Positions 4,945 through 63,400 are shown, counted from the first letter of the stretch. The stretch: 64,000 nt of DNA from Patescibacteria group bacterium (GCA_041660605.1 JBAZWB010000002.1:66216-130215), one strand, 5' to 3'. Notes: generated by a model from the sequence alone, not told the origin. Numbers and translations: made by a program.

Positions 4945-6003
4945 TTATTTGTTGGGAATATAAATAGTTGCTTTACCTTTGCCAACCGATTTAATCATTC
5001 TAATTTTTTTCAGTCGCTGTAAATGCAATTGCGCCGTGCGCCGGGGGCAGTTTAACACCTCTTCCGCGTCCTTAACGGTCATACGGCTGACCTGATCCAA
5101 AAAATCAATAATTTTAAGCTGTTCAGGGCTTAAATATATTTGGGACTTAACCCTCGTACCTTTGGAACGCGCTGCCAAAGACAATATCCTTCCCTTAACG
5201 CGGTCAATTTCGTCTTTAAATCCGGTTATAAAATAATCCAGCCACGGCGTGCAGTCCTTTTGCCGTTCATCATAATTTTTACCCTGATTAATGGCTTTAT
5301 AATATGCCGGCCGGTCTGTATTATAATAATCTTCCAGAGCAAATAATCGGCGGAAGTCATACCCCCGCTGATACAAAATCAAGGTGGCCAGCGCTCTAGC
5401 CGTACGGCCATTGCCGTCTGTAAACGGATGTATCGCGGCAATTTCCAGATGCGCCACTGCCGCGACGATCACCGGATTAATCTGTTTTTTTTCGCTGTCT
5501 CTGAGCCAAGCCACAAAATTATTCATCAATTGTGGCACGCGCTTGGCTTCCGGGCCGGTGTACATTATTTGCGCCGGCAGACCGAGACGCCGTCGTACTA
5601 CGTAAATCGGCCCCGGGCGGTAGTGCCCGCTGGATCGCGGAGCCAGCGTATTGCTGGTAACCAGGTTATGAATTTTAAGTATAACTTTTTCACTTATCAA
5701 CTGGCGCTGCGCCACGACTTTTTCGATGTATTCCAGTGCTTTCAGATAATTTTTTACCTCATAAATATCGCGAGCCGGCGCGTCTATCTTCCTATGAGCA
5801 TAGAGCGCCTCTACTTGGGCGATGTCCAAACGGTTGCCTTCAATTTCCGTGGAATGGTGCGTCATGCGAATGACGGCCTGGCGGCGTAAACGCAATTCCT
5901 GCTGGGGCAATATCCGGGCATGCTCAATTACGGCTTTGGCTTCCGCAATAGCCGTCAAATCGCGCAAAATATTGTCGGATAAAGTATAGACGGGTTTAAA
6001 CAT
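4945..6003 (-). CDS. Fic/Doc family AMP-transferase-like protein with N-terminal inhibitory motif and C-terminal winged-helix domain
   Basis: 352 aa; canonical Fic motif HPFTDGNGRTARAL; SxxxEG inhibitory motif (STEIEG); basic C-terminal wHTH-like tail. Confidence 0.85.
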   Translation of the reverse strand: MFKPVYTLSDNILRDLTAIAEAKAVIEHARILPQQELRLRRQAVIRMTHHSTEIEGNRLDIAQVEALYAHRKIDAPARDIYEVKNYLKALEYIEKVVAQRQLISEKVILKIHNLVTSNTLAPRSSGHYRPGPIYVVRRRLGLPAQIMYTGPEAKRVPQLMNNFVAWLRDSEKKQINPVIVAAVAHLEIAAIHPFTDGNGRTARALATLILYQRGYDFRRLFALEDYYNTDRPAYYKAINQGKNYDERQKDCTPWLDYFITGFKDEIDRVKGRILSLAARSKGTRVKSQIYLSPEQLKIIDFLDQVSRMTVKDAEEVLNCPRRTAQLHLQRLKKIRMIKSVGKGKATIYIPNK

Positions 6004-17343: not shown

Positions 17344-17504
17344 ATAATTTCTTCTGCTCTTATTATACCATTAAAAGCTATTTTTTTCTAATAAAAAATT
17401 AGATTAACTAGAATCCAATTCTTTAATAATACTCAAACCCTCCCATTACGGAGTAATCATAATAAAATTGTTTAATCCGCCGATTACAAAGAAATGTTAC
17501 GAAA

Positions 17505-17762
17505 ACAGAGCGAGGAGGAATGGTTGCCCATGGGCAACCGCGTTGTACTGTTTGAGCGAACGCAGCGAAGTCTCGCCGCAGGCGGACGAAGCGAGGAGCG
17601 AGTTTACAACGCGGAATGACAACGAGCCTGTTTATGCCTGCCCCGTACCTGGAGCGAAGCGAAATGGTGCGGGGTTAATTTCTTTGTACCGGCGCAGCTC
17701 TTTTGCTTCTTTGGCGCCTGCCCCGCTGGATAGCGGGGTTTGCACAGAAAAGAAGAAATAAA
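17505..17762 (+). ncRNA. Structured intergenic repeat element, copy 1 (candidate ncRNA; strand uncertain)
   Basis: About 95-nt core identical (3 substitutions) to 24805..25005; closed by a perfect 10-bp stem CCGCGTTGTA/TACAACGCGG; 5' GAGGAGGAATG plus hairpin; 3' hairpin carrying a nested insertion. Confidence 0.4.
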
Positions 17763-17812
17763 ACTAAACAAAAAACTGCTCTTCCGCAGTTTTTACTTAT
17801 ATATTGAAATAC

Positions 17813-19070: not shown

Positions 19071-20285
19071 TTAAGCTTTAGGCAGTAACTGGCTCATCAC
19101 GTCATCAATCGTTACTATCCCCAGCAGACGATGCTTGCTGTCCAGCACCGGCGCGGTCAGCAAATTGTATTTCGTCATCGTAGCGGCAATGTCCTTGATT
19201 TTTTGATGCGGGTGCAGAGGCTGAGGGTGAGGATAATGCTTCAAAATATCCCTAATCTTCATCTCCGGAGGCGAGATAACCAGCCAACGCAGTGAAAATT
19301 TTCCATGATAATATCCGTCCTCGTCAGTCACATAAACATAAAGCACGGATCTCAGTTTTGGCGAGGCATTTTTGACCTCCTTCAGCGCCTCTTGGATTGT
19401 CCAGCCAGGTCTGACCGTGGCAAAATCGACATTCATCAATCCGCCGGCGGTATTGTCGGGGTAAGACAACAATTGCTCAATTTTTTTTAGCTGGCCGCTC
19501 TTTATCTGGGATAAAAAAAGACGCGCTTCATTGCGCGGCAACACTTTTACCAAGTCAACGATTTCCGAGTCTGTCATTTTGGTTAATATCTCAGCGACTT
19601 TTTCCGGGCCAAGATACTTGACGAGAACTTTCTGCAAATTTGGGTCAACCTCCTCCAGCACCCTGGCGGCTGAATCAGCGTCCAATGAGACTACCAGTTT
19701 GCTGCCGTGTCTCAGGTTAAGATCCTCAACAATATTGGCCAAATCAGCGGGATGCAGTTTATTGAGCTTCTGCTGAGCTCTATCTAGTTTAAGTAGCCCA
19801 TGCATAAATTTTGTCTGGCGCCAGTCAATCAGATTAACTTTTAGCAGTCCTGTTTTCCCCAGCCAATCAATGCCTAAACGACGTAAAATTCCTCCCATGC
19901 CAACATCGATTCCGAGCACGCTCATTTGATCATTGACTACACCGATACGTAAATCATTTACGCGTACCACCCGCACCCCGGCGATATCGACTATCTGCTG
20001 ATCAAGCACGTCTTTTTTCAGATAAACCAGGCCTTCGGCCACTCTCTCCTGGACATGAACGGAATTATAGAGATTCTTCAGGGTAATTTCTTCCCGGCTG
20101 ATAGTCTCGACATATTCATAAGGAATAAAAATCAAATCTTTGCTTTTTGCCTTTAAAATTGCTAAAAACTCCAAGGCCGGGTATTCACCGGATTTTGGAA
20201 TGACTAAAATATCCTGCAGTTTACCTACTTTCTCGTCAGAGCTGTCTTTGACTTGTCTGTTTAATAAATGGCTTAAATAAGGCAT
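19071..20285 (-). CDS. MgtE-like cytoplasmic regulatory protein (PRC-barrel-like + MgtE N-domain + CBS pair), with no transmembrane pore domain
   Basis: 404 aa; YPDNTAGGLM CBS-region motif of MgtE; no hydrophobic C-terminal segment; stop 11 nt before the Nramp start. Confidence 0.65.
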   Translation of the reverse strand: MPYLSHLLNRQVKDSSDEKVGKLQDILVIPKSGEYPALEFLAILKAKSKDLIFIPYEYVETISREEITLKNLYNSVHVQERVAEGLVYLKKDVLDQQIVDIAGVRVVRVNDLRIGVVNDQMSVLGIDVGMGGILRRLGIDWLGKTGLLKVNLIDWRQTKFMHGLLKLDRAQQKLNKLHPADLANIVEDLNLRHGSKLVVSLDADSAARVLEEVDPNLQKVLVKYLGPEKVAEILTKMTDSEIVDLVKVLPRNEARLFLSQIKSGQLKKIEQLLSYPDNTAGGLMNVDFATVRPGWTIQEALKEVKNASPKLRSVLYVYVTDEDGYYHGKFSLRWLVISPPEMKIRDILKHYPHPQPLHPHQKIKDIAATMTKYNLLTAPVLDSKHRLLGIVTIDDVMSQLLPKA

Positions 20286-20475
20286 AGCTATTTGCCATTA
20301 ATGGCCAATAATTGTAGAAAAGAATTTAAGGGGGAGTTTTTAAACTCCAACTTCCTAGCTTAGGTCGGGGTGCCGGGACCCCGCACCACTGCTGGGTACG
20401 GGGCAAGCTTGTCACCCTTCGGGTGATCCCCCAAAGGGGGAAACTTGCGATCTCAAGCATATTTTTTCCGAAAAT

Positions 20476-20515
20476 CGGGGTACTGGGACTCGAACCCAGG
20501 GTCTTCCCGCAACAG
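20476..20515 (-). pseudogene. tRNA 3'-half fragment (T-arm CTGGG-TTCGAGT-CCCAG + acceptor TACCCCG-A) followed by a T-run
   Basis: Reverse complement reads CCACTGTTGCGGGAAGACCCTGGGTTCGAGTCCCAGTACCCCGATTTT; same acceptor 3' strand as the adjacent tRNA-Pro. Confidence 0.5.
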
Positions 20516-20592
20516 TGGTCGGGGTAGTGGGACTTGAACCCACGGCCTCATGCACCCCATGCATGCGCGCTAGCCAACTGCGCCATACCCCG
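20516..20592 (-). tRNA. tRNA-Pro (anticodon GGG) with encoded CCA
   Basis: Manual fold: acceptor CGGGGTA/TACCCCG, D-arm GCGC-AGTTGGCTA-GCGC, anticodon arm CATGC-ATGGGGT-GCATG, T-arm GTGGG-TTCAAGT-CCCAC, discriminator A, CCA. Confidence 0.8.
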
Positions 20593-20689
20593 ACCACTGT
20601 TGCGGGACGCGCTACGCCTCAGCCAAAGGCTGATCCCCGCCCACCTGCTATCGCAGATAGCGGGCGCGGCGCCTATGGTGGAAACTTCG

Positions 20690-20945
20690 CTATACCCCGT
20701 TTTTTGGAAAAAACATGCGCGATAGTTTACCCCGTATCCCGAGTGAAACGAGTGGTACGGGGCCAACGGAGTTTACCCCGCCGTATGGCGGGGCCATACC
20801 CCGACCTGAGCTATGAAAAATCTTGCACCTTTACCCCGCATCATCTGACCCTGAGCGGAGTCGAAGGAGAAGAATGGTGCGGGGCCATGCATGCTCGTTA
20901 GTTTACCCCGACCTAAGTTATGAAAAACCTTACACTTTTGGCCCA
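20690..20945. repeat. Tandem direct repeats (~120-bp period) each carrying copies of the tRNA acceptor/5'-flank (TACCCCGACC) and a 35-nt unit CCCCGACCTRAGYTATGAAAAAYCTTGCAC
   Basis: taccccg occurs at least 6 times; gccataccccgacc at 20582 is duplicated near 20775; 35-nt unit at about 20786 and 20905. Confidence 0.5.
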
Positions 20946-21061
20946 GTTATTTTTTCGGTACCTACGGCGTTTCTATTATTTAATGATGCTTTTTTAAAAT
21001 TATTTACCTAAATCGCCAAACTGAATAACAATTATAGCGTAAAATATTGTATTTGTAAAAT

Positions 21062-21090
21062 AAAAATCCCGACATGGAGCCGGGATTTTT
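21062..21090 (-). terminator. Bidirectional rho-independent terminator hairpin (A-run / stem / T-run)
   Basis: aaaaatcccgacatggagccgggattttt just downstream of the 21129 stop. Confidence 0.5.
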
Positions 21091-21128
21091 GGGCAAAACA
21101 AGGTGACGTTACAGGCTCAGCTGTCTGC

Positions 21129-21326
21129 CTAATCAGTAGTTTCGACCGGATCGCGAACAATCGTTCTGCGAAAACCACAGGGATTACTGACAGTACAAAC
21201 AAGCTCCTCGCCGTTTCCCGCCATCGCGTCATGCGTTGGACGGATTATCAATGTGCCGCGCCCACATGTGCAGCCCTTACCTTCGTTAGACAAAGCCTCG
21301 CTTCTGATGATCTCCTGTGCTGGCAT
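21129..21326 (-). CDS. Small Cys-containing protein, hypothetical
   Basis: 65 aa; strong SD (AGAGGAGG) 6 nt upstream of ATG; GKGCTCGRG...CTVSNPCGF; second gene of a two-gene operon. Confidence 0.45.
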   Translation of the reverse strand: MPAQEIIRSEALSNEGKGCTCGRGTLIIRPTHDAMAGNGEELVCTVSNPCGFRRTIVRDPVETTD

Positions 21327-21348
21327 TGCTACCTCCTCTTGAGTAAAT

Positions 21349-21558
21349 CTAAGGTACTATCTTTCTTTTTTCTACTTTTAACGAATATTTGCGGGATCCC
21401 GGTACCCGTTTCAGGAGATAGGCGTCCCCGCATTGCTGACACATGACGCCAATCTCCGTTTCTGTGTCAATTATCTTACGTGCTGCTCCGTGGCAGGTTG
21501 ATGGCTGCTGGAGCATGTGTGCAATCATCTCCCGATAACACTCTGGGTGCTTGCCCAT
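21349..21558 (-). CDS. Small zinc-ribbon-like protein (C/H x4), hypothetical
   Basis: 69 aa; SD GAGGAGG 5 nt before ATG; C7, C22-H23, C39-x2-C42; basic C-terminus. Confidence 0.5.
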   Translation of the reverse strand: MGKHPECYREMIAHMLQQPSTCHGAARKIIDTETEIGVMCQQCGDAYLLKRVPGSRKYSLKVEKRKIVP

Positions 21559-21825
21559 TAATCCTCCTCAAAAGAAATTTGGTTCTTCCCTCATAATAAA
21601 AAAATTAGCCACCTGATGGCTAATCTGTAAGTCCTTTATTTTATTAGAAAACTACAGACTAACCATCAAGCCGCTAATTATAATAATAATTGCAATAACA
21701 ATACCCGCACCTATCAGGGTGAAATTCTCGTTATATATTTTGGCACTGTTTAATTGCATATTTTTTTCCACAATTTGGCTGAAATCAGTATAGCAAATCC
21801 CGCAAAACTGTCAAAATTACATTTT

Positions 21826-22422
21826 TTAAAACATTATTTCCTCGTCAGCCCGCCTGTAATCATGAATCTCATTCTTTCGGAACCAAAGCTGTTCTTCAAA
21901 TTTCGCCTCTTCAACATTTCCGGAAGCGTGGATCAGATTTTTAACCGTTCGCTTGTTCCTATTGGCTAATATCGGCGAATCAAGGGAATAATCGCCGCGG
22001 ATGGTACCGGGCTGGGCAAAGCGAGGCAAGGTATTACCCACCATCATTCTGACCGCATCAACCGCGTGTATGCCCTGTAATAAAATAGCCACTACCGGGC
22101 CGGAGCTTAAGAATTCCATATTCCACTTCCTGACCATTTTTCCAATTTCATACGGATCCTTTGTGCCCAGCTCTTCATTCGGATCCTGTCCGTATTCTTC
22201 ATAGCTTTTCAGAGTTTTTTGTCCGACATTAGTTAAATATATTTTTTCATCCGGGTAATGCTTGGCTACCATATCCTCATTCACCCAGACCATTTTCAGG
22301 GCGGCAATCTTAAAACCTGCCTTTTCAAAGCGCGATAATAATTCACCCACAAGAGCTCTTTTTACCGTATCAGGTTTAAATAAAACTACCGTTTTTTCTA
22401 ATTGCGGGTTTTCGCCTGGCAT
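21826..22422 (-). CDS. ndk: Nucleoside diphosphate kinase (long form with insertion)
   Basis: 198 aa; KTVVLFKPDTVKRALVGELLSRFEKAGFKIAALK and NLIHASGN active-site His context. Confidence 0.8.
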   Translation of the reverse strand: MPGENPQLEKTVVLFKPDTVKRALVGELLSRFEKAGFKIAALKMVWVNEDMVAKHYPDEKIYLTNVGQKTLKSYEEYGQDPNEELGTKDPYEIGKMVRKWNMEFLSSGPVVAILLQGIHAVDAVRMMVGNTLPRFAQPGTIRGDYSLDSPILANRNKRTVKNLIHASGNVEEAKFEEQLWFRKNEIHDYRRADEEIMF

Positions 22423-22426
22423 ATTT

Positions 22427-22849
22427 TTATTTCTTCTCTCTCTTAGTTAATAAATATTTTACTTTTTCCACGATTTCAGCCGGCGTGTGGTTGGCTTTGA
22501 TGAAATAGTCATCAGCTCCCAATTCCTGCCCTTTTTCCACGTCTTCGGACTGGCCCAGGTTGGTCAGCAATAAAATATGCGTACTGCCCATGCTGGGATC
22601 TTTTTTCAATTCACGCAGTACGGCAAAACCGTCAAGCTTGGGCATAATGATATCCAATAATATAAGATCGGGTTTTTCTTTTTTGGCGATTTCCAGTCCC
22701 TGTGCGCCGTCTTCCGCTCTGATAACTTTCAGCCCCTCTTTGGAAAACTTAGTGATATACATGTCTGCCAGCATCTTATCGTCTTCAACCAGCAATATCT
22801 TTGATTTAAATTTCCCTGAATCGCTGGCAATGTTTTTTTTATCGGCCAT
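22427..22849 (-). CDS. Stand-alone response-regulator receiver domain protein (CheY-like)
   Basis: 140 aa; ILLVEDD...LILLDIIMPKLDGF phospho-acceptor Asp context; conserved Lys. Confidence 0.8.
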   Translation of the reverse strand: MADKKNIASDSGKFKSKILLVEDDKMLADMYITKFSKEGLKVIRAEDGAQGLEIAKKEKPDLILLDIIMPKLDGFAVLRELKKDPSMGSTHILLLTNLGQSEDVEKGQELGADDYFIKANHTPAEIVEKVKYLLTKREKK

Positions 22850-24712: not shown

Positions 24713-24804
24713 AACAAAATTATACCATTTAATATTTGACGCTACAAACTAACCGGAGAATAAAACTCTTCAGAGACCGCCATTATAAAAAATTTAAAAG
24801 AAAA

Positions 24805-25005
24805 AGGAGTGAGGAGGAATGATCCCGCCGATAGGCGGGACCGCGTTGTACTGTGTAAGCGAACGCAGCGAAGTCTCGCCGCAGGCGGACGAAGCGAGGA
24901 GCGAGTTTACAACGCGGAATGACGACGAGCCCTTTTTCGATAATTTTTTATACAGGCGGCAACTCTTTTGCTTCTTTTCTGTTTGCACAGAAAAGAAGAA
25001 ATAAA
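24805..25005 (+). ncRNA. Structured intergenic repeat element, copy 2 (candidate ncRNA; strand uncertain)
   Basis: Same ~95-nt core as 17505..17762; the 5' hairpin has different sequence but conserved hairpin structure (tcccgcc-gata-ggcggga vs ggttgccc-atgggcaacc); perfect 11-bp 3' hairpin cttcttttctg/cagaaaagaag. Confidence 0.4.
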
Positions 25006-44082: not shown

Positions 44083-44235
44083 CCGAGACTTCTCCATTCC
44101 TCTTCGGCTACGCTCAGAGTCAGTCGAAGTGACAAGCGTTTGTTCAGGTAAAACCCTTATGATAGGCACCAGCGCTTGTCATGTCGACCATAGGCCCTGA
44201 GCTTGCCGAAGGGCCGAAGTGGAGACATCTCAGTC
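44083..44235. repeat. Palindrome-bearing intergenic repeat, copy A
   Basis: GTCGAAGTGACAAGCG (44123) and CGCTTGTCATGTCGAC (44173) form a 16-bp inverted repeat; leader GAGACTTCTCCATTCCTCTTCGGCTACGCTCAGAGTCAGTCGAAGTGACA is repeated at 44805. Confidence 0.55.
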
Positions 44236-44244
44236 AACTGCACC

Positions 44245-44538
44245 TTACCCATACCACCCCTCACTCAAATCATTCCAGCAGGGATTCATGCTATTAATCA
44301 ACCATTCTTTTTTCTCCCGGCGCCACCGTTTTATCTGTTTCTCCCTTTGTATTGCCACAAAAATATCGTCGTGCACTTCGTAATACACTAGCTTGTTAAC
44401 ATTATACTTACTTGTAAAACCCGGATATACTTTATTCTTATGCTGCCAAACACGACTTTCAAGATTTGAAGTAACCCCGACATATAAAACACTCTTCATT
44501 TTATTAGTCAGTATATAAACATAATATTGCCAGGCCAT
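44245..44538 (-). CDS. GIY-YIG nuclease superfamily protein (YhbQ/UPF0213-like small stand-alone form)
   Basis: About 97 aa from internal Met (MAWQYYVYILTN...SVLYVGVTSNLESRVWQHK...KLVYYE...REKQIKRWRREKK); the longer ORF extends to 44604. Confidence 0.8.
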   Translation of the reverse strand: MAWQYYVYILTNKMKSVLYVGVTSNLESRVWQHKNKVYPGFTSKYNVNKLVYYEVHDDIFVAIQREKQIKRWRREKKEWLINSMNPCWNDLSEGWYG

Positions 44539-44620
44539 AATAAAAATTCCTTCCGTTTGAGGAAGGCTATGGTCTAATAGTAGTATATTAATTAACTTTG
44601 TCAATCATACTAGCGTTTTT

Positions 44621-44775
44621 AACTCCAAGTCGAGATTTCTCCATTCGTCCTCGTTCCACTCGGGCTCAGTCGAAATGACATGCGTTTTTTGACGACAAAC
44701 AACACCTGATAAAACCACCCAAGTCTGTCATATCGACCCCCTCGACTACGCTCGGGGCAGGCTTCGCGGAGACAT
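44621..44775. repeat. Palindrome-bearing intergenic repeat, copy B (diverged)
   Basis: gtcgaaatgaca ... tgtcatatcgac; shares the GAGACATCTCRG tail with copy A. Confidence 0.5.
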
Positions 44776-44804: not shown

Positions 44805-44862
44805 TCCAAAAACGAGACTTCTCCATTCCTCTTCGGCTACGCTCAGAGTCAGTCGAAGTGAC
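44805..44862. repeat. Partial copy C of the same repeat (left arm only, 50/50 identical to the copy A leader)
   Basis: cgagacttctccattcctcttcggctacgctcagagtcagtcgaagtgaca. Confidence 0.5.
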
Positions 44863-44883
44863 AGGGCGTATACCCCCAACACA

Positions 44884-54000: not shown

Positions 54001-54369
54001 TTATTTTGTTTTTGATTTGATAATAATAGTTGTAAGAATTTTTATAATCTCCTGAGATTTATCTTTTAGCATCACCTTGGATTCCTTGGTAACTCTGTTG
54101 ACCGAAAATATATATTCAAGCCAGTTATCAGTTTCAATAGCTGATTTCCTGGCATAATGAAGATAATTAATAAAATCCTTCCTGCTTGTTGCCCCGGAGC
54201 CTTCAGCCAAATTACCAGAAATCGAGGTCGCTGAACGCACAATCTGACCAACTAAAACCTTAATAATGGAATTATATGGGATCTTCTTGCAAAGATTAAA
54301 AACCATTAAACTCAAACTAAATGATTTCTTCCAAATATCCAAATCCTTATAATTTTTAAACGTACCCAT
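54001..54369 (-). CDS. Four-helix-bundle protein (23S rRNA intervening-sequence protein family)
   Basis: 122 aa; YKDLDIWKKSF...IVRSATSISGNLAEGSG...ARKSAIETDNWLE family signature. Confidence 0.8.
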   Translation of the reverse strand: MGTFKNYKDLDIWKKSFSLSLMVFNLCKKIPYNSIIKVLVGQIVRSATSISGNLAEGSGATSRKDFINYLHYARKSAIETDNWLEYIFSVNRVTKESKVMLKDKSQEIIKILTTIIIKSKTK

Positions 54370-54420: not shown

Positions 54421-57400
54421 CTATGGTATGACCTGCTGATATACCGGCAGCGCTTTTGTAAAGTCTGATAAACCCGGCGGCGTATTGGCTACCACCCTTC
54501 CATCATACACAATCTGTTCAGACGGAGCAAGATCTTTGGAATACTTCCTGTCAAAACTGTAACCCTTGGCTACGAACAAACCGGAGACCTGGAGAGGTAA
54601 TCGATAATTAACCACCAGATTACCGGTCCCCTCCTTGAGGCCACGGTATTCGCCATCTCCGGCTGTTGTCTCAACTGTATCGTTGCCGCGGCGCAGCCGT
54701 AATACCATTTCAGATTTGCCGCTGACGCCTGGCTGGTAATCACCCCTGCCGATAAAAGACTCTACTAAAGTGGTAATATCCCGCAGATAGACCGTCTCAT
54801 CAGTAGTCCATTCGGTATCGCTGATATTTTGGGCAGTTTCCGAGACATCATCAGTCATTAGCGCGCCATAAGGATTTGAGCTGAAATCAGGATAATCTCT
54901 CACCAAACCCTGCCTGGTCTGGAATCCCACTCCTCCGCTGTCGCAAACACTGGCACGTAAGTGCGCATCTAATATTTCCACATTGGCAGGCAGATTAATT
55001 CCTTTAAACCGTAAATATGTCCTTTCGGCGCTACCGGCATTCCAGCCGATATTCATGCAGGCGGCACCCTGATCATAACTGCCTGGTAAGGCCGCAGTAT
55101 CATTGCCTAGATCTGTTATATCATAATTCACCTGTTGCGGTGAAAATTCTATTATTAATTCTGCCGGGGAACCATCCTCAACTGAACTAAAACTGCGATA
55201 TTCATCGCCACTGGCATCACCCTCTTTCAACACGACTCCCATATATGAAGTTGCATTATCATAATATGTCTTTTCATACTCATCGGAATTTATATACTTC
55301 TGTACCAAAGACTTGATGTCCGGAGTGATGTTTTCGCCATTATCAACCCAATCAGTAACATCATAGCTGACGCTATTGGAGGTGGGTATATCATACAAAT
55401 TCTGGGCGTTAGGATTCTGAAAACTTGGAGGAGGAACAGTATGATTAAAAGCATAAATGTCATTATAATTAGCCAGATATATCCTACCGATAAAATCACC
55501 AGCGACCGCATTGTCACCTGTTAATTTTATTTTAGCGGATTTAATTTCCGAGTTGGGCGGGATATTCAAGCCGCCGGTGCCAAAACCCCAGCGCAAGTAC
55601 GAACGGTAGGTGACGCCAGCATCTAAACCGAACTTTAATGAATCGCCGTCATTTACATTATTATAAACAGCTCCAGCTTTTGAAACATAAGCGTCGTCAA
55701 CGCCAGCCTGGACTGTCTGCGATACTGGCAATCTTCTGCCAGTACTGATAACGCCCTTTACAACATCATCCGTGGTATCCGGATCAATAGCCACAAACAC
55801 GCCAGCCAGCTGGTCAACCGTGGAATTAATGTAAATATTGCCGCGCACGATTACCGCCGCTGAAGCCATCTCGCTGATGGAATCAAGCGTGCCGGAATTA
55901 TAATAAGTATTGTCGTTGATTTCCAGATCGCCATCAATCACAATCAATCCATTGCCAGAAGTTCCATTAAAACCATTTTCAAAAGTCATTTCATTATTTA
56001 TGACGTAATGGTCCGCTCCGCTAAAATGATAAATCTGGCCGTCTAATGCCATACTGCCGTGAGTGATGCTGCAGTTACTGATATCAACTACGCTGCCGCT
56101 GGCGTCTACCTGCGTCTGAACTCTATTGCCATTACGATTCAGACCTCCAGTATTTGCAACTAAACCATCTATATCCAAAGTTTCCAAAACATTTTGCCCA
56201 AGCGGGAATCCCGCGCCCGCCGTCCACGAACCGCCGTGGTCCGCGCAGCTGATCTCGGAAACATAAGCGGGAAGGCTGCACTTACCGCCGATCAATGAAT
56301 CCAGGCCCTGCTGATAAAAACCGCTGGTTGGCAATCCGGTCTGGGTCTGAGAGTAATAGCTAGGGATGCCCTGAATGCTGCCGTCTGCCAATATTAAATA
56401 TGTTGAAGTAAAATCTTCAGAACCTCTGGGCGGCGGCGCCAGCTGGATATTCTCCTGGGCGTAAATATCGCTGTACATAGTATTGACCCAGGGGATGCCG
56501 ATCAAAGCGCCTACCGGCATGACCTCCAGCCAACCCAGGCCGGATTTAAACTTGCCGGGAGTCCAGCGGTTGTATTTCAAATCAGAGGCTACACAATATT
56601 TTTCTGCGCTCGATGGCCAACTATAAGTAATACAATAAGGATATTGGGGATTAGTGCAATCAAGTGATGACCCAAAATTATCCAGCGCGCCGGTAGTCAG
56701 CCAGCGTTTTTCCGTTCGCCAATTGCCATCATCCCCGGAACCGACAATATACATATACGCAGTATCAATAGCCATCCCATTGACATATTTACTCGCCGCC
56801 GCGCCAGTTACCACCCCACTGCCGGCATCGCCAAAGTCACCGGCTGGACAGGCGCCTGCAGTGCAGAGCGCGCCGGTATTAATATTATATTTTTCAATTC
56901 TCAAATCTTCTTCAAACTCATCATTTCCTGCAATATAAATATATTCCTGGTCAATATCCAGCTCACCGAGAATAAGGGTGGCAGACTGCCCGGCAATCAC
57001 CCCACCAGTCCCAAAATCACCGGCTGGACAGGCGCCTGCAGTGCAGAGCGCGCCGGTATCCAAACGGCGTTTTTCGATATGCCAGTCATTAGCAACGGTG
57101 CCGCCAATATACATGTATTCACTGTCGATTTTTATTGAATACAGCGTAACATTCGTCCCTGCGACAGTGATTATTCCGCTCCCGGCATCGCCAAAGTCAC
57201 CGTCTGAACAAGTGCCAGCGGTGCAGAGCGCGCCGGTATCCAGGCTGCGTTTTTCGATACGCCCTTTATTAGAATCATTGAAGCCTGCTACATATAAATA
57301 ATTATCATCAATAACAATATCTTGAGCCTTATTACTATCGCTGGCACCGGTTATTATTCCGGCAGTGCCGAATGAATCAACCAATGAACCATCTGACAGA

Positions 57401-60400
57401 CGGCGTTTTTCGATACGCCAGTTATTAGAGTCGTCCTTTCCAGATATGTACATATAACTGCCATCAATAGCTATGCCACCTGCATTCATCCCATCAACAC
57501 TGGTAACGGTTCCACCTGTACCAAAACTTGCGTACAAAGAGCCGTCGGATAACAACCTTTTTTCTATACGCCAGTTACTGGGCGGCGTAGTCGCGCCAAA
57601 CACATACATATATGTTGAGTCAATGGCGATTCTTCTAGCACCATTGCCTCCAGCAGGTCCATTTACTACCCCCCCAATGCCAAAGGTCCCAGCTGAACAG
57701 ACGCCAGCAGCACATAATTCCCCGTCAGCTGACCGGCGTTTTTCTATATGCCACGTTGCGTCATCATTCGAACCTATGGTGTACATATAATCAGTTTCAA
57801 GGGCTACGTCATTCGCACTTGACGTTGAAGCTACTTCCACTATTCCATCTCCATCAAACGCTCCGCATTGCAGGCCGCCGGCAAAAGCGACCGGATCAAC
57901 CTGCGTATCAATCCAAATAATATGCGGATTGCCCAAGGCATCCAGTTTAACGCTGTTTAAGCGCGAATGCCAGTCTGATGACGCGTCAACAGTCAAATAT
58001 AGATCATCATAATTTAATAGGCCGCCGGAATCCCCAGATGCCGTTACCCAGGCGCCGCTGCCACCGGAAGACAAAGGGCTCCAATAGCGGTAGCGCACAT
58101 CAGCGATCCCGCGCCAAGCCAAGTCGTCGCCCCAAACCACGTGTGGCCTGTCTTGGTCATCAAACGTCAAATCCATGGAATGGCTGGCATGAACCGTCAT
58201 TTCCGGTTCACCCACAGCCGGACGATTAGGCCAGATATCATCAAACTGCCCATCTACTGGATTTGCATCCACCCAATCCTTAGCGGCCGTATCCCACTGC
58301 AAAAAGATTAAACGCCCCGGATCGCGCCAGAGCAAGCCCGGTCGGTTGTCAGAAGTCAGGGCAATTTTGGGATCAGCGCCTTCTGGATTAGGAATACCGA
58401 TGCCCCAACTGTTTGAATCAATATTAGCCGATACGTCATCATCAGGGCCGTCAGCAGGGTCAGCGTCCACCCAACCGCTACCATCCCACCAGCGGTAAAA
58501 AATTTCTTCGCCCGAAGCAGTACTGGCCGCGGTATTTTCCTGCCAGACAATGTGGGGCCTTTGCTCCGGCGTCTCATTGCCCAGGGCCAGTCTGGGATTA
58601 TTAGATTCAGTAGCGGTATTGCTGACATTAACAAAACCATTGGCCGTACCGTCAGCCGTCACCCAAGCCGTGCCATTATTCCAGCGGTAATATATTTCCG
58701 CTAAAGCATATGAATCTTTTCGATAAACAATATGCGGATGATTGTTTCGGTCTATTTCCATAGAGGGCATATAACTCCCCGTATCAACCTGGCTCGGCGC
58801 TTGCCAGGACCTCGCCGTACTGTCCCAGGATGAATAATAAACAATGCTATTTTCGTCCCAAGCCAGATGCGGCAGGTCATTGCCGTCCAGCGCTAAAGAG
58901 AGACGTTCGGCATCCTCGCTCTCTTTACCGGCCGGTTTTGCAACCTGGCCGTTAACGCCCGGCTGGTACTCACTGTCGTCCGCGGTCAGCCAGCGGCCAT
59001 TTTTGTATTTAATATAATAAATGACATAACTGGCGGTGGCATCGTTATAATTCACCCAGGCCAGATGCGGATCTCCGGCTGAATCAATGGCGATGTCCGG
59101 ATATCCCGGATTATCATAAATATTAGTGGCTACTTTTTTTGTATTACTGACATTAACGGCCGGCAGCCAGCGCGAGCGCGTGCTGAAATCGTTCTTTTCC
59201 GCGTTCCAGCCCCATCCGAACAGGCTATATAACGGTATTTCATCGGGATTCAAATCCGGATCGCCAAGGTACGACTGGGTATCTACGCTAGTGCCAACCG
59301 TACTGTAGCTCCCCTTATTACCCTGCCCATCGTCATACTCTCCGCTCCAGCTGATCCAGCCCCAGGCACAAGGCTGTGTTGAGCCAGCGATACCGCAGTT
59401 ATAGCCGGCGCCGATGTCTTTCAAGGACATAATGCGGGCCCAACCGTCTATGCCATGCGTCGTGCCGTTAAAATTGGAAGTAGCAAAAGTATGGCACACG
59501 TCATTTACCGGATCAATCGTACAGGTGCCTGCTTGCCCACCCGAGGCGCTACGGCTACAGGTATATCTTTTGTCATAATCAAACAAACAAGTGGCCGATG
59601 CCGGCACGGCGCAATGAGTCAAATTCACCGTGGTGCACCAAGCGCTATTATCGGAGCACTGGCCGTACATATTACCGTCTTTATCATAGCAGTAGCCATA
59701 AGTAACTCCATCCGGCGGACTGCCGGCGCTCTCATTGCAAGTGTTTGCCACGCCACAATCAATGTCAGTGTAACAACCCTTTTGCGAATCATTACTGCAG
59801 ACGCTCTCATATGAACTTATCCAGCCTAGGCCGGTGGTAACTGGTTCTGCTGCTGGTGATATTTTATAAATAAAATTTGTACCATAATCTGTTGACCAGA
59901 TACTGGATCCGTCATTTATGATCTGCTTAGGCTCTGACGGATTTCCAAAGTCAAACCTTTTTATGGTGCTCTGATTAATGGGATCTATTTGATAAACAGA
60001 ATGTTTCTGCGCATCCCCCAGCCATAAATTACCGTGAAAATATTCCAGCCCATACATGTCATCGCCAGTCCAGTCGCCATCAGTTATTTGAATAACATTG
60101 CCATTTGCTGGATCGAGCCTGGTCAGTCCCGACTGGCGAGCTACCCATAGATATCGGTTGTCAAAAGCCAAGTCATACGGCTTAGTTATGCCTGCGCCTA
60201 AATTGTAAGTATTATTTACTGAACCATCTAAACCAATTCGTGAAATAAAATTACTGCCGTAGTTTGGCGCCCAGACATACTTGCCGTCAAACAGCGGCCA
60301 GGTAGGCGAACTGCCGACTCCATAACGGGCTGATTCTACGCCGTCACTCACCCGGATTCGCGATACTTCCCCAGCCACCACATTATGAGTCACCCACAGC

Positions 60401-63400
60401 TCTGCTTCAACATAAACAATCCCCTCTAAATTGCAGGCGCCGGTATCGCAGCCGGAAATCGCTATAGAACCGCCAGTCTGAACCGGAAAAACCGCGCCAT
60501 TGCTTGGATCAACTTTGTATATTATCCCGTCGCCAGCTGAAACCACCCACAGATTGGTGCCGTCATAGGCTAGGCTCCGTAAATTATTACCAAACGCAGC
60601 GCATGGTGTAGTAGGCGGCAATAGAAGATGATCTTCTCCGTCATCACAATCCAACTCATGCCCCGTTGCCTTACTAATACGGGCCAAACGGCTGTTGGTG
60701 CCCGATTCCGCGCCCAGTACCACCCATATTTCTCCCACGCCTACTTTAGCTACGCCAAAACCCTGATCCATGCCCAGATCAGCACTGTCGCTTTTAGTCC
60801 ACTCGTCCTCTAATGCCTGACCGGAGGCGCTCCAGGCATAGCCCTCCAGCGGATTAAATTCCCGCGACTCCACGAAATGGGTATTCAGTCCCCAGTGATT
60901 GGCCGCACCGCAGCTGTAATCGCTCTGGTCATAGCGGTTCAGGCAGTTAAATGACACCCAGCCGATATTTGACGACCAGGCCCAGCCGACCACGTTGTTT
61001 TTCACCAGGAATAATGTCGCTTCACTCCCGAAATTAGTCGGCACGCAGCTGCGGTCCTGGACACAGCCAGTGGAATCTATGACAGAATCTTCGCCATTGC
61101 GGGCTTTAACTTTAAAATCATATTTGACGGAAGCCTCCAGGTTGGTAATATCCACTCCCGCGTCTCCGCCCCAGTCCGCCCGCGATCCCCAGGCAACGAC
61201 ACCTGGCGCCGGATCATAACCATTTGCGCAGTCGGGATTATTCACCGGGTCAACGGTGGTAAAGTCTATCGAACCATCAGATTTAACATACTTTTCCCCG
61301 GCCACTGTGCCGTCGGCATTATACTTGGTAACGCAAATGGCGTACTGGGTATATTCAACCGGTACGGTAGGATTGTCATCAGAGCGCAGGCGCAGGTTCA
61401 TGGTCGTACCGTCAACCGTATAAATGAACGGCCGCCTTGGCGCCCAGGCCAGCGTATAAATGCATTCTCCCGGATTAGGGGGGATAAAACCGCTGTAATC
61501 TCCGGTACCGTCATTCGGATTTGAGCAATCGCCGTTGCATGACTGCACCTGGTAGCAATACTCCCTGTTTCCCTCTAGGCCATTATCAGTAGCCTTGGGG
61601 TTCTTGCGGTATTCATGGAATCCCGGATCACTCCCGGCTCCATAATTACCGCTATTTTTTATTTCTTCAAAAATAATTCCCGAACTGCTCTCCAATAAAT
61701 TTGAGTAGTCACTGACCTCGCCGGCATCCAGGCTGATCGTTTGCTCTGCGCGATCTAAAAATTGTATAGACGCAGGTGTTTGAATTGAAGTATAGGCCGA
61801 AGCGGTCGATGACTGCGGCCCAGCGCCAGAAGCATTGGAGGCCTTGACATATACCTGATATCTGGAATTTGGATTCAGCCCTTCCTGTAAATATTCATCG
61901 GTAAATATCGGCACTTTTCCATTGAGGGACAGGCCGGTCAGTGCATCAAAAATTTCATATGAGGTAGGTAAGGGAAGTCCTAGCGGTGGACTCCAGTTCC
62001 ATCTGATTGAACTCAAATCCTGGGTGGTATGGTTAGGCGCAGGCAAGACAGGCCAGAGCGGAGCGCACGGCGGGGTCAGTCCCTGTGCAGTACTGCCACC
62101 GCTATAGCTGGTGCAATCATTCAAATGAGGGAGATCATTGAGACATGCCCCGGTGTCATCCTGATTTTTCGCCCTCATATGGAATATATAGGTCGTATTG
62201 CACAGAGATAAATCTTTAAATGTCAATATTCCGCCATCCGCGCCGGCCAGTCCTAAGCCGCCTGAACTAGTTGGCTCAGTCTTAGTCCTCCAGCCATCAT
62301 ACCCCGGATAATCATTCCAGCTTGTTCCGCCGTTGGTTGAGTATTGAATCTGATATTTTGTAAGGTGGGGATTGCCGGTAAGGCCAGTGACGGTTACCTT
62401 ACAATTTTGATTGTCTGTTGTATCATACTTACATTCTACCCCGATCAAAGGTTTTTTAGCGGCTGTAAAGGCTGAAATAGTAGCAGTCTTTTGGCCCTCC
62501 CTGCCCCGGGAATCAACTGCCCGCAAATATGCCGAATACTGCGTATTCGGCGTTAAGGAACCGCCCCATCTGTCTAACATCTGCGTAAAACTAGTTAGTC
62601 CTCCAAAGATGTCTGCTCCTATTTGCGTACCACCAAAATCATAAAACTTGTAATAATCTACGGCTAATCCACCCACCGGTGCTTGCCATGACCATCGCAG
62701 AATGGTATATACTGGATTGTCGGCATGGGCAAAACTGCTTGGCGGGCAGGGCGGCAGAGTGTCGTACCGCGAGGTGGCAGAATATGCCGTCTCTACCAAA
62801 TCAAAATTTCTTGCTTTGACTCGATAATGATAAAAATAATTCGCGTCACAGGTTATTCCTCCGGATTCCCTATGGGTAAAAGTGAAATTGCGCGGCTGCG
62901 CGGTCCAGTCCATCGCCGTTTTTCCGCTGCCCCAATTTGGCGTAGTACTAGTGGTATTGCTATATTGAATAAAATAATGAGTACCATCAGGATTATTGGC
63001 GGTATTTATGGTCACCCTACAATAATATCCAAGCGCGTCATAGCCGCACGTCACCGCACCAACATCTAGCAAGGGCTGGTCCGCTAAGGAGCAAAAATGG
63101 GTGACCGCTGACATGGGGGTATAGAGAGTGCAAGGTCGGTCTTCGAGAGCGCAATCAAGATCGTTTTCGCAAACGTAGTTGTTTCCACATCTGCCAGCTA
63201 CTTCTCCCTCGACTTGCGGAGTATCGCGGTTCCGTGATTTGGTGGTGAAATCAAGGCAGGTATTCGGACCGATAGCGCTCCCGTCCACCTTTGTGGACAC
63301 GGTCACGGGCGCGGATAGCGGCACGTTAGTCCCGGTAGGGGTAGGATCCCACTGGCACAACCCGTCAAAATCAGCATCAGTTGGATCATAGAGATCGCAC

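Follow-up and report, generated by a model that had tools for sequence, protein, structure and literature searches.

How does an intact transfer RNA (tRNA) gene come to lie inside several layers of broken copies of itself? The question is posed by a 64,000-nucleotide stretch of one strand of a Patescibacteria group bacterium genome (GCA_041660605.1 JBAZWB010000002.1:66216-130215), referred to here as the window and belonging to a 960-kb contig, in which a tRNA-Pro(GGG) gene on the minus strand is enclosed by inverted repeats, GC-rich hairpins and tRNA-derived pieces at positions 20330-20960. The explanation favored here, with moderate confidence, is that the locus is a fossil "tRNA nest" without an open reading frame (ORF), consisting of at least three degenerate shells produced by repeated nuclease-driven insertion or duplication, each round of which left an intact tRNA. 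For comparison, a metagenome scan with the T-arm/acceptor string retrieved 119 loci (761 kb), designated by L-numbers, and 106 full tRNA-Pro genes were examined, from 105 metagenome loci and the window.

The core of the nest is an intact tRNA gene with an encoded CCA end at 20516..20592 (minus strand). The preliminary description of this DNA had placed a tRNA-Pro(GGG) here and proposed a check with a tRNA caller; ARAGORN returns the same call, and the match to Rfam family RF00005, at 63.4 bits, exceeds the gathering score of 29. The gene has the cloverleaf, canonical arms and readable anticodon expected of a functional tRNA. The 14-bp leader/trailer inverted repeat described around it is likewise real, with perfect leader/trailer arms of 15 nt that add to the 7-bp acceptor stem to give 22 bp when the pair between position -1 and the discriminator is counted. 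The leader arm TCCCGCAACAGTGGT (20593..20607, minus) is the exact reverse complement of the discriminator, the CCA and the next 11 nt of trailer, and the trailer arm ACCACTGTTGCGGGA (20505..20519, minus), located by an inverted-repeat search, overlaps the discriminator and CCA. The full helix arms, 20505-20526 and 20586-20607, are 22 nt each and 100% complementary; the 22-mer TCCCGCAACAGTGGTCGGGGTA occurs once per strand, at these two places, and none is expected in 100 shuffles.

Around this core, shell pieces were placed with nhmmer and a tRNA-Pro profile, by repeat search, from the minimum free energy (MFE) fold or through alignment by eye. The profile pieces all lie on the strand of the tRNA (minus) and in strict order, with 5' pieces upstream (positions 1-12 at 20803, 1-34 at 20741 and 1-17 at 20699) and 3' pieces downstream (positions 44-74 at 20505 and 60-74 at 20379). 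Because 5' fragments stand upstream and 3' fragments downstream, the acceptor, leader and trailer strands pair as concentric nested helices, five in number, with a common CGGGG/CCCCG core and lengths of 22, 26, 10-16, 14 and 20 bp. Several inverted repeats had been overlooked in the preliminary description: I1 (20457-20482 / 20693-20718, 26 nt, 88%), I6 (20394-20409 / 20724-20739, 16 nt, 81%), and I3 and I4, in which 20352-20371 matches 20905-20924 and 20798-20817, respectively (20 nt, 90%). Folded as minus-strand RNA, 20330-20960 reaches -316 kcal/mol compared with -235 +/- 7.6 for shuffled sequences (z = -10.6), and the predicted fold is a rod of nested helices in which the inner cloverleaf and the T-arm of shell 2 are kept. 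The pile forms a GC island of 0.59-0.65 between flanks of 0.33-0.42. Breaks in its shells fall within three loops, following AGTT in the D-loop, position 35 in the anticodon loop and GTT in the T-loop; short GC-rich double-hairpin inserts occupy the D- and T-loop breaks, and a single hairpin occupies the anticodon-loop break.

As its sequence reads, shell 2 is a tRNA-Pro-like gene with two inserts, one in the D-loop and the other, the working tRNA itself, in place of the anticodon loop. On the 5' side, the leader arm GCATGTTTTTTCCAAAAAA and a 5' piece CGGGGTATAGCGAAGTT (positions 1-17, nhmmer E 0.028) occupy 20683..20718 (minus), the leader side pairing with 20457-20482 to form I1. The piece ends at a D-loop breakpoint that recurs in L141, L174, L095, L206 and L215. 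The D-loop insertion and what remains of the D-loop and D-stem 3' strand, GGCGTAGCGCG, fill 20608..20682 (minus; sequence and MFE fold). The insertion consists of a long hairpin (20634-20682, TCCACC...GGGGA) and the hairpin TCAGCC-TTT-GGCTGA (20619-20633), and is homologous to inserts found after AGTT in L174 and L141. The 5' half of shell 2 thus runs CGGGGTA TA GCGA AGTT, hairpin insert (20619-20682), GGCGTA GCGC G TCCCGC; the center is AACAGTGG-T-tRNA-CCACTGTT; and the 3' half runs GCGGGA AGACC CTGGG TTCGAGT CCCAG TACCCCG A. The 3' side (20457..20504, minus), AGACC-CTGGGTTCGAGTCCCAG-TACCCCGA followed by the trailer arm TTTTCGGAAAAAATATGC, is the orphan T-arm plus acceptor copy noticed in the preliminary description. 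It is borne out by the profile, which matches positions 44-74 at 20475-20505 (E 6e-9), with TTTT following this stretch; the piece itself covers positions 44-73 with a compensated T-stem, is 87% identical to the tRNA, and is joined to a trailer arm that holds the T-run.

The TCCCG within the leader arm 20593-20607 matches the anticodon-stem position in the pseudo-tRNAs of other loci. In this TCCCG...CGGGA family, found in L098, L123/130, L149 and L202, the anticodon arm is a closed and often perfectly palindromic hairpin, and shell 2 has the same arm with a tRNA inside it. A second functional tRNA among the outer shells was considered and rejected: shell 2 has acceptor, D- and T-arms but no decoding capacity, since its anticodon arm is a closed helix holding the inner tRNA.

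Shell 3 is represented upstream by the 5' piece CGGGGTAAACTATCGCGCATG (20711..20741, minus; about positions 1-34 with a D-arm deletion, weak nhmmer E 0.2), which pairs with 20394-20409 in I6. Its 3' side (20394..20456, minus; double-hairpin scan and MFE fold) is T-arm-like, GCAAG-TT[...]CAAG-CTTGC, followed by CCCCGTACCC. The T-loop is broken after GTT by a 30-nt double hairpin at 20412-20441, composed of TCCCCCTTTGGGGGA and TCACCCGAAGGGTGA, and the string CAAGCTTGCCCCGTAC on this side is also present in the syntenic relative L084. The outermost 3' end (20352..20393, minus; I3 and I4) consists of an acceptor-only minihelix and CACCCCG-ACCTAAGCTAGGAA, the latter being the complement of both upstream leaders and resembling the native trailers of the nest-free loci L178 and L122. 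The profile match here, positions 60-74, is weak (E 5.2). The minihelix-like string CGGGGTGCCGGGACCCCGCACCA stands on the plus strand at 20366-20388, no more than 2 nt from where it was first placed. The pile closes with a small hairpin, GGAGTT-TAAA-AACTCC (20333..20348, minus; MFE fold), and a T-rich stretch before an MgtE-like gene; this hairpin is inferred to be a terminator and is absent from the list of the terminator scan.

Upstream of shell 3, the order is less tidy. The preliminary description saw tandem units of about 120 bp at 20690-20945; the repeat search does find diverged direct blocks of 41 nt (83%), 26 nt (77%) and 21 nt (90%), set 107-176 nt apart, and a clean tandem array is not supported, as Tandem Repeats Finder gives a negative result. 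The blocks make better sense as a series of tRNA-Pro copies, each carrying an internal deletion and its own leader. The outermost unit (20874..20944, minus; sequence and repeat blocks) starts with a spacer/leader at 20911-20944 ending in CATAACTTAGGT and continues with an internally deleted copy, CGGGGTA-AA-CTAACGAGCATGCATGG|CCCCGCACCA (20874-20910, minus), which retains roughly positions 1-7, 19-35 and 68-76 with CCA; this copy was aligned to the tRNA by eye and is not reported by nhmmer. The unit contains a 41-nt block 83% identical to 20797-20837 and a 21-nt block 90% identical to the shell-3 piece. At the break of the copy after anticodon position 35 lies hairpin A (20834..20884, minus; MFE helices), with arms CCCCGCACCAT and ATGATGCGGGG (11 nt, 91%), and hairpins of the type CCCGCC...GGCGGG stand at the same place in L145, L140, L172, L198 and L142. 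There follow, at 20786..20833 (minus), the motif TAAAGGTGC, an AT-rich spacer, the leader CATAGCTCAGGT and a second truncated copy, CGGGGTATGG|CCCCG, for which nhmmer gives a weak match (positions 1-12 at 20803-20792, E 0.54). A mini-copy made of acceptor strands and CCA only, CGGGGTAAACTCCGTTGGCCCCGTACCACT (20751..20781, minus; from sequence), has a 3' part that forms a 14-bp helix, 20764-20751 / 20390-20377, in the MFE fold.

A sigma-70-like promoter is predicted upstream of the whole pile, at 21031..21059 (minus), with TTTACA, a 17-nt spacer and TATAAT in 11/12 agreement with the consensus. It is the sole promoter-like site within 20200-21200 and lies some 90 nt ahead of the first tRNA-derived unit.

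Similar structures recur elsewhere. Most tRNA-Pro genes in the metagenome scan are plain, and fragment piles occur in a minority of Patescibacteria. tRNA-Pro-like pieces are present within 900 nt of 38 of the 106 genes, some of them belonging to neighboring tRNA genes. Pieces of the 5' type are always upstream (nine loci including the window), and those of the 3' type are downstream except where they belong to another full tRNA gene. Breakpoints across the 106 genes recur at linear positions 17/18, 35/36 and 56/57. A single copy split into two complementary outer halves by a full tRNA in inverted arms is seen in L198, L141 and the window; the split falls exactly after anticodon position 35 in L198 and in the D-loop after AGTT in L141. 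L142 also has a full tRNA in inverted arms with outer 5' and 3' pieces, and the arm sequences differ between loci. A leader composed of a 5' piece to position 35, a hairpin, TAAAGGYGC, an AT-rich spacer and the tRNA is found in L140/L175, L142, L145 (twice), L172 and L198 and also characterizes the outer units of the window, the TAAAGGYGC-spacer-tRNA portion being present in 7 of 103 tRNA-Pro loci. L141 differs from L194/L099 by a 112-nt upstream shell. In the same pair of haplotypes (L194 oriented 5380-5525, L141 oriented 2100-2190), the 3' part of the neighboring tRNA-Leu has been partially duplicated in one of the two, which shows that partial duplications hit adjacent tRNAs at the same locus.

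Synteny across the MgtE-like neighbor is weak. When the neighboring MgtE-like protein (19071-20285) was searched against one genome per GTDB species, only relatives of 47-48% identity were found, with no tRNA nearby. The protein database supplied closer and more informative relatives. At the corresponding position, no tRNA locus exists in a relative whose MgtE is 75% identical, and one with 72% has the same tRNA 3' half followed by related hairpins in a different arrangement, sharing CAAGCTTGCCCCGTAC.

Long downstream arrays of tRNA-like pieces comprising the 3' two-thirds are present in L130 (reverse strand, oriented 1150-1900) and L098 (6390-6560). The anticodon arm in these arrays is a perfect loopless DNA palindrome (TCCCGATGTACATCGGGA, TCCCGACGTACGTCGGGA, TCCCGATGATCATCGGGA), and the fact that it stays palindromic through its center suggests either that it arose at the DNA level or that a dimeric protein has its site there.

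The insert in the T-loop of shell 3 belongs to a recurring 30-nt unit of two hairpins with 6-bp stems and 3-nt loops (consensus TCCGCC-NNN-GGCGGA + CCNGCC-NNN-GGNNGG). Copies were collected from L095 (two), L126 (two), L129, L145, L170, L174, L206, L207, L210, L215 and the window (20412-20441). In the cases seen, which count nine other loci, the unit stands strictly after GTT in tRNA D- or T-loops and in either orientation, which points to insertion at the DNA level. Among ten aligned copies, all 12 pairs are always paired and 5 have changed on both sides, a count biased by the fact that most copies were found by a search requiring perfect stems. In recurring at many sites and in both orientations as two adjacent short GC-rich hairpins whose stems persist despite sequence change, the units qualify, by analogy, as double-hairpin mobile mini-elements.

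A small gene is strongly associated with such piles. In L174 and L098, an ORF of 82-83 amino acids (aa) with a GIY-YIG nuclease domain (Pfam E 1e-13 and 6e-16) lies between an outer 5' piece and the full tRNA. The 119 loci contain 13 GIY-YIG ORFs, 9 of which abut tRNA-Pro, a zone that makes up 12.8% of the bases. The association was also examined from the protein side, which does not depend on the tRNA search: the L174 ORF has 31 homologues, carrying Patescibacteria-group names where the source names an organism, and all 7 unique retrievable contexts abut a tRNA. Five of the contexts are on tRNA-Pro (L174, L206, L207-9, L210, L215-8) and the others on tRNA-Ile(UAU) (L211, L213/4). A GC-hairpin-interrupted partial copy, an ORF and a full tRNA occur together in 4 of the 7. 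The order is 5' piece with double hairpin, ORF and full tRNA-Pro in L206, L210 and L215-8, and full tRNA-Pro, ORF and partial copy with double hairpin in L207-9 and L095. L213 (1090-1535) presents a 5' piece through the anticodon, GC hairpins, TAAAGTCC, the GIY-YIG ORF and a full tRNA-Ile(UAU), with 8 nt of leader duplicated, and in L211 (1750-1826) the ORF immediately precedes a tRNA-Ile(UAU)-like gene with which the contig ends; tRNA-Pro is thus not the only tRNA involved. Altogether, the ORF is inside or abuts an interrupted tRNA in L174, L098, L095, L123/130, L141, L206, L207-9, L210, L213 and L215-8. The acceptor stem of the inner tRNA in L206 is CAGGGCA and that of the outer shell CGGGGTG...CACCCCGACCA, a mismatch indicating that the tRNA of the cassette came from elsewhere and is not a local copy. 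In a Magasanikbacteria genome (L207/L208, 1131-1761), a single tRNA-Pro(UGG) has a GIY-YIG ORF on either side, and the first of these ORFs overlaps the position of a tRNA-Phe call.

On the favored explanation, the pile of the window would have been built by repeated DNA-level events of a type seen in active form in other Patescibacteria, where a GIY-YIG ORF of 82-86 aa is flanked in the pile by a partial tRNA copy with hairpins and by a full copy. The putative nuclease would cut tRNA-gene DNA, and repair would insert or duplicate a unit while always leaving one intact tRNA, repetition giving rise to shells. In the presumed active cassette, the old promoter and 5' piece precede the ORF, whose end is no more than about 12 nt away from the full tRNA. 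The resident tRNA promoter probably drives expression of the ORF, its transcript probably being trimmed by tRNA processing, and the cassette would leave the host a working tRNA. The ORF in the window may have been lost or may never have been part of the last events. The perfect arms would most simply be inverted copies of "ACCA + native trailer", made by fold-back (acceptor-stem-primed) synthesis or quasi-palindrome template switching, in which a 3' end at the acceptor stem would fold back and copy the other side into a leader arm. Two observations are consistent with fold-back: in 5 of 6 units the leader ends in NGGT facing ACCN, and the outermost trailer ACCTAAGCTAGG is similar to the native trailers of relatives that lack a nest (ACCAATTAAGCAGC in L178) and whose leaders are non-complementary. 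Older arms would have decayed with age, from 100% in the inner helix to 88% in shell 2 and 81-90% further out. The whole pile is probably transcribed from 21059-21031 as one highly structured precursor from which the tRNA is cut out, so that the present locus would serve simply as a tRNA gene.

A broader and more tentative proposal is that Patescibacteria harbor tRNA-gene parasites consisting of a GIY-YIG ORF of about 82 aa, GC double hairpins and their own tRNA copy. Such elements might insert at the loop-coding tips of tRNA genes (D-loop 17/18, anticodon 35/36, T-loop 55/56), hijack the tRNA promoter, be 3'-processed by means of the following tRNA and, through repeated invasion and fold-back repair at the acceptor stem, generate Russian-doll genes with perfect palindromic arms, of which the locus in the window would be an ORF-less end state.

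Several findings weigh against nuclease-driven construction, both at this locus and in general. The nest in the window contains neither the nuclease ORF that a homing cassette would carry nor a credible remnant of one, and the only GIY-YIG gene of the window is 24 kb away and belongs to another subfamily (34-42% identity to the nest-type proteins). The 82-aa nest-type proteins, putative nucleases, comprise the catalytic domain only. The order of ORF, full tRNA and partial copy varies between loci, so that no one cassette structure is established, and no empty/filled-site pair with exact junctions was obtained for the window locus. Within the pile, the upstream 230 nt are a mix of internally deleted copies and not clean shells, several pieces are assigned on weak scores (E 0.03-5) or by eye, and helix complementarity does not fall steadily from the inside out (100, 88, 81, then 90%). 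The idea that the arms arose by fold-back is wholly inferential. A candidate decayed nuclease ORF at 20928-20800 (tblastn, HNLGRGKLTS...FF...VG) had a best E of 7e-4, which 0 of 60 simple shuffles reach; its profile score is only 2.4 bits, and it was rejected because 27 of 150 shuffles reach that score.

The distant GIY-YIG gene (44245-44604, minus; Pfam E 5e-17), with a likely ATG start at 44536 and about 96 aa, is bracketed by a 51-nt perfect direct repeat (44084-44134 and 44813-44863, about 730 nt apart), and a third copy of 75% identity lies between the other two (44614-44680). The locus resembles a mobile cassette whose GIY-YIG gene belongs to another subfamily than the nest-type ORFs. 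A motif, CTTCGACTC...CTCAGGG / CTTCGACTGACTCTGAGCG, is shared by the loop of hairpin A (20840-20866), the repeats at 44084-44134 and L179 (oriented 1135-1190, downstream of tRNA-Pro); it could reflect chance or a common element.

A first alternative is that the pile exists for the sake of its RNA, the leader/trailer helix and shells guiding folding, processing (for instance by RNase III, RNase P or 3' trimming) or a regulated release of tRNA-Pro(GGG). The strong promoter-like site ahead of the whole pile, the extreme fold with its preserved cloverleaf and shell-2 T-arm, and the T-stems of outer pieces, which still pair through compensated changes, speak for it. So does the length of the inner helix, as the minimal RNase III substrate is a helix of about 22 bp, and so does the TAAAGGYGC leader, which recurs in several diverged lineages. 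Long leader/trailer helices of 14-17 bp, mutually unrelated in sequence, also exist in L142 (15 bp), L198 (about 14 bp) and L141 (17 bp, spotted by eye and offset by a 2x2 loop), each of which has outer tRNA-Pro halves as well. These are the only 3 among the 105 metagenome loci, and the remaining 102 include tRNAs 96-100% identical to that of the window with their own adjacent promoters. One of them is L122, whose tRNA is 100% identical over 78 nt and sits directly behind its own TATAAT box as a plain promoter-proximal gene. Pairing is therefore not conserved across orthologous loci as a precursor stem would be, and since most relatives are plain, even with an identical tRNA, the helix is not a conserved processing signal, contrary to a suggestion in the preliminary description. 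Nor do the relatives show the same repeats as a conserved regulatory region, which would have told against an insertion history; they present a mixture of plain genes and nests of other construction. Mismatches without compensation are found in the outer helices (88%, 81% and 90%), the double-hairpin inserts occur in both orientations, and full leader-trailer pairing is expected to hinder rather than help bacterial RNase P. Perfect arms produced by a DNA mechanism would, moreover, mimic covariation. A role at the RNA level is accordingly judged unlikely.

A second alternative, given an equally small share of belief, dispenses with any mobile element or nuclease and invokes spontaneous slippage, template switching and unequal recombination at a hairpin-rich tRNA gene, with small GIY-YIG ORFs simply tending to land near tRNA genes. 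Partial tandem duplication alone puts 5' pieces upstream and 3' pieces downstream, leaders have been duplicated along with pieces (the 41-nt block; 8 nt of leader in L213), and the neighboring tRNA-Leu in L194 has been partially duplicated. Quasi-palindrome template switching is also known to proceed independently of nucleases. Against this stand the breakpoints, which are not scattered and fall at three recurring loop positions, the conserved 30-nt double-hairpin unit, the inner tRNA of L206, which is foreign to its outer shell, and the adjacency of ORF and tRNA (7/7 from the protein side and 9/13 from the tRNA side, compared with 12.8% expected).

A third explanation takes up the model of the preliminary description and sees in the pile the scars of integrase-type elements (tyrosine recombinases) that integrated and excised serially at tRNA-Pro, each time regenerating the gene and displacing an att-core copy. 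Its general outline stands, in that this tRNA gene is a hotspot and DNA-level events have regenerated the tRNA and left partial copies. Partial 3' copies ending at the tRNA 3' end do lie downstream (20475-20505 in the window, and in many loci). Pieces of positions 57-73, reportedly the classical T-loop att sublocation in the survey of tRNA and transfer-messenger RNA (tmRNA) integration sites attributed to Williams (2002), are found at +200 to +250 in L107, L123, L130, L134, L137, L171, L174 and L205, with an array of at least six in L130. The attribution to integrase att sites fares worse, given the 5' pieces, tiny spacers and hairpin-filled breaks. Upstream 5' fragments are as common as downstream 3' fragments, where att duplication would affect one end only, and copies are separated by 13-110 nt, not by kilobases. 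The breakpoints are at D-, anticodon- and T-loop positions and are filled by GC hairpins, and the complementary halves around a full tRNA (L198, L141, window) need insertion of a whole tRNA rather than an att crossover. The enzyme gene in related piles is a small GIY-YIG nuclease, and, as the preliminary description had stated, the window has no integrase: among its 59 non-overlapping ORFs with 70 aa or more, 57 were scanned with Pfam, and none of these matched an integrase, a recombinase or a transposase. This origin is considered improbable.

An assembly artefact or chance can practically be discounted: both independent short-read contigs end within repeats and the region is hence hard to assemble, but over 20286-20566 (L082) and 20645-22826 (L212) the sequence is matched at 100% identity by independent Logan contigs assembled from other samples, so that the sequence is the same in three samples except for 78 nt (20567-20644) without independent support, and neither the 22-mer nor the fold is approached by shuffled sequence. 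Both contigs stop inside the nest (L082 at 20566, L212 at 20645), one of them at the anticodon-arm palindrome CATGCATG; nests probably fragment assemblies and are hence under-represented in short contigs.

Further candidates were examined and set aside. Rfam searches at gathering thresholds and at E <= 10 gave only the tRNA at threshold and otherwise noise, with no group I intron, GOLLD/ROOL-type RNA, Y-RNA-like RNA or tmRNA. A group I intron in the anticodon loop is rejected, as no Intron_gpI match at E <= 10 exists in 20250-21050 and the base before the break is G35. Archaeal-type introns and split or permuted tRNAs are rejected since there is no bulge-helix-bulge motif, the inner 22-bp helix is bulge-free and the host is bacterial. 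Phage carriage was rejected after a scan of viral contigs, in which the tRNA 3' half had no match and the D-loop plus hairpin pattern had 9, all coincidental coding sequence without a tRNA.

Among known systems, SegB offers the closest parallel to nuclease-driven construction of the nest. It is a GIY-YIG endonuclease of T-even phages that cuts inside tRNA genes at the motif RAWTSGAAC and drives recombination-dependent segmental amplification of tRNA and segB, producing a full tRNA gene and truncated copies; its homologues are significantly co-located with tRNAs (PMC13096335). The motif, as read here, is the complement of the T-loop GTTCSAWTY. SegB thus resembles the present case in having a GIY-YIG gene among tRNA genes and provides a tested precedent for cutting and amplification; the two kinds of protein have a Pfam domain in common. 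SegB is a phage protein of more than 200 aa with a DNA-binding part, whereas the putative nucleases here are 82-86 aa, limited to the catalytic domain and encoded on cellular Patescibacteria chromosomes. The nested copies, loop-position breaks, GC double hairpins and palindromic arms are further differences. By analogy, the locus would work most like SegB-type homing-endonuclease activity and tRNA-targeting mobile DNA in general, and it is not a member of the integrase-att class. Tyrosine-integrase elements share with it the tRNA hotspot, the regenerated intact gene and the displaced partial 3' copies downstream; they differ in that the nests have no integrase, contain 5' copies, tiny inserts and a tRNA within a tRNA, and have hairpins at their breakpoints.

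Interrupted tRNA genes have been described in the same phylum by Nakagawa et al. 2026, who report group I introns at position 35/36 of Patescibacteria tRNA-Asn and tRNA-Asp (PMC13011429). The position is one of the breakpoints found here, and in both cases interrupted genes are missed by annotation. In contrast, the wobble pair of a group I P1 helix needs U before the break, where the nests have G35 and no intron signal; the interrupted copies are truncated or decayed with a separate intact tRNA inside, and the paper includes neither tRNA-Pro nor nested copies. The double hairpins recall mitochondrial double-hairpin elements (Paquin et al. 2000, cited in PMC3787672), GC clusters and hairpin repeats (PMC2800124; PMC4478555). 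These are short GC-rich units of one or two hairpins in AT-richer genomes, apparently mobile and in either orientation, that land in structured-RNA genes and adjoin endonuclease ORFs. The units here are in a bacterial host and strictly after GTT in D- and T-loops, and the comparison is one of analogy only, with no sequence homology expected.

Replacement of a damaged target also has precedent. Mobile endonuclease ORFs of fungal mitochondria, such as that at Allomyces atp6, bring a duplicate end of the target gene; a selfish cassette breaks an essential gene and supplies a replacement, and the displaced original becomes a pseudogene. The nests differ in that a tRNA gene is hit, its replacement is complete and several shells would result from repetition. 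Finally, the leader/trailer stems of rRNA operons, which are RNase III substrates, are likewise helices of at least 20 bp formed by sequences flanking a stable RNA; the tRNA helix differs in that it is not conserved in relatives, runs straight on from the acceptor stem and is free of mismatches in the youngest shell only.

A literature search on nested tRNAs, tRNA-carrying inserts and Patescibacteria GIY-YIG proteins with tRNAs found no description of this arrangement in the collection of papers covered, and the proposed selfish element, which would invade tRNA genes and bring a spare copy, is apparently undescribed. If the proposal is correct, tRNA genes in the smallest bacterial genomes are a battleground for a compact selfish element that escapes the cost of destroying an essential target by bringing a spare tRNA. 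It would provide a cellular counterpart to the cutting and amplification of tRNA genes by phage SegB, and the minimal GIY-YIG nucleases might possess loop- or structure-directed specificity. It would also account for the odd, GC-rich and hyper-structured intergenic islands and tRNA-like fragments in Patescibacteria assemblies, islands that break short-read assemblies. For annotation, a nested or interrupted tRNA copy beside an intact one should not be taken for an intron-bearing gene, and perfect leader/trailer helices can arise by DNA repair rather than RNA selection.

The remaining features of the window lie outside the nest. Two small Cys-rich ORFs of 65 and 69 aa (21129-21326 and 21349-21558, minus) are genes in the public annotation and identical in L212. 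They have no Pfam family and no homologue in the fetched loci, and no link to the nest is shown; the pair ends at a hairpin and T-run, directly past which stands the promoter-like site of the nest. A GC-richer intergenic element is present in two copies (17461-17770 and 24777-25005), about 85-88% identical over about 150 nt and in shorter blocks. It gives rise to spurious ORFs sharing the peptide SERSEVSPQADEARSEFTTRND; it matches nothing in Rfam and bears no relation to the tRNA nest. A gene of the 23S rRNA-intervening sequence protein family (54001-54369, minus; Pfam E 7e-27) adjoins an ORF of 3167 aa at 54421-63924 (minus).

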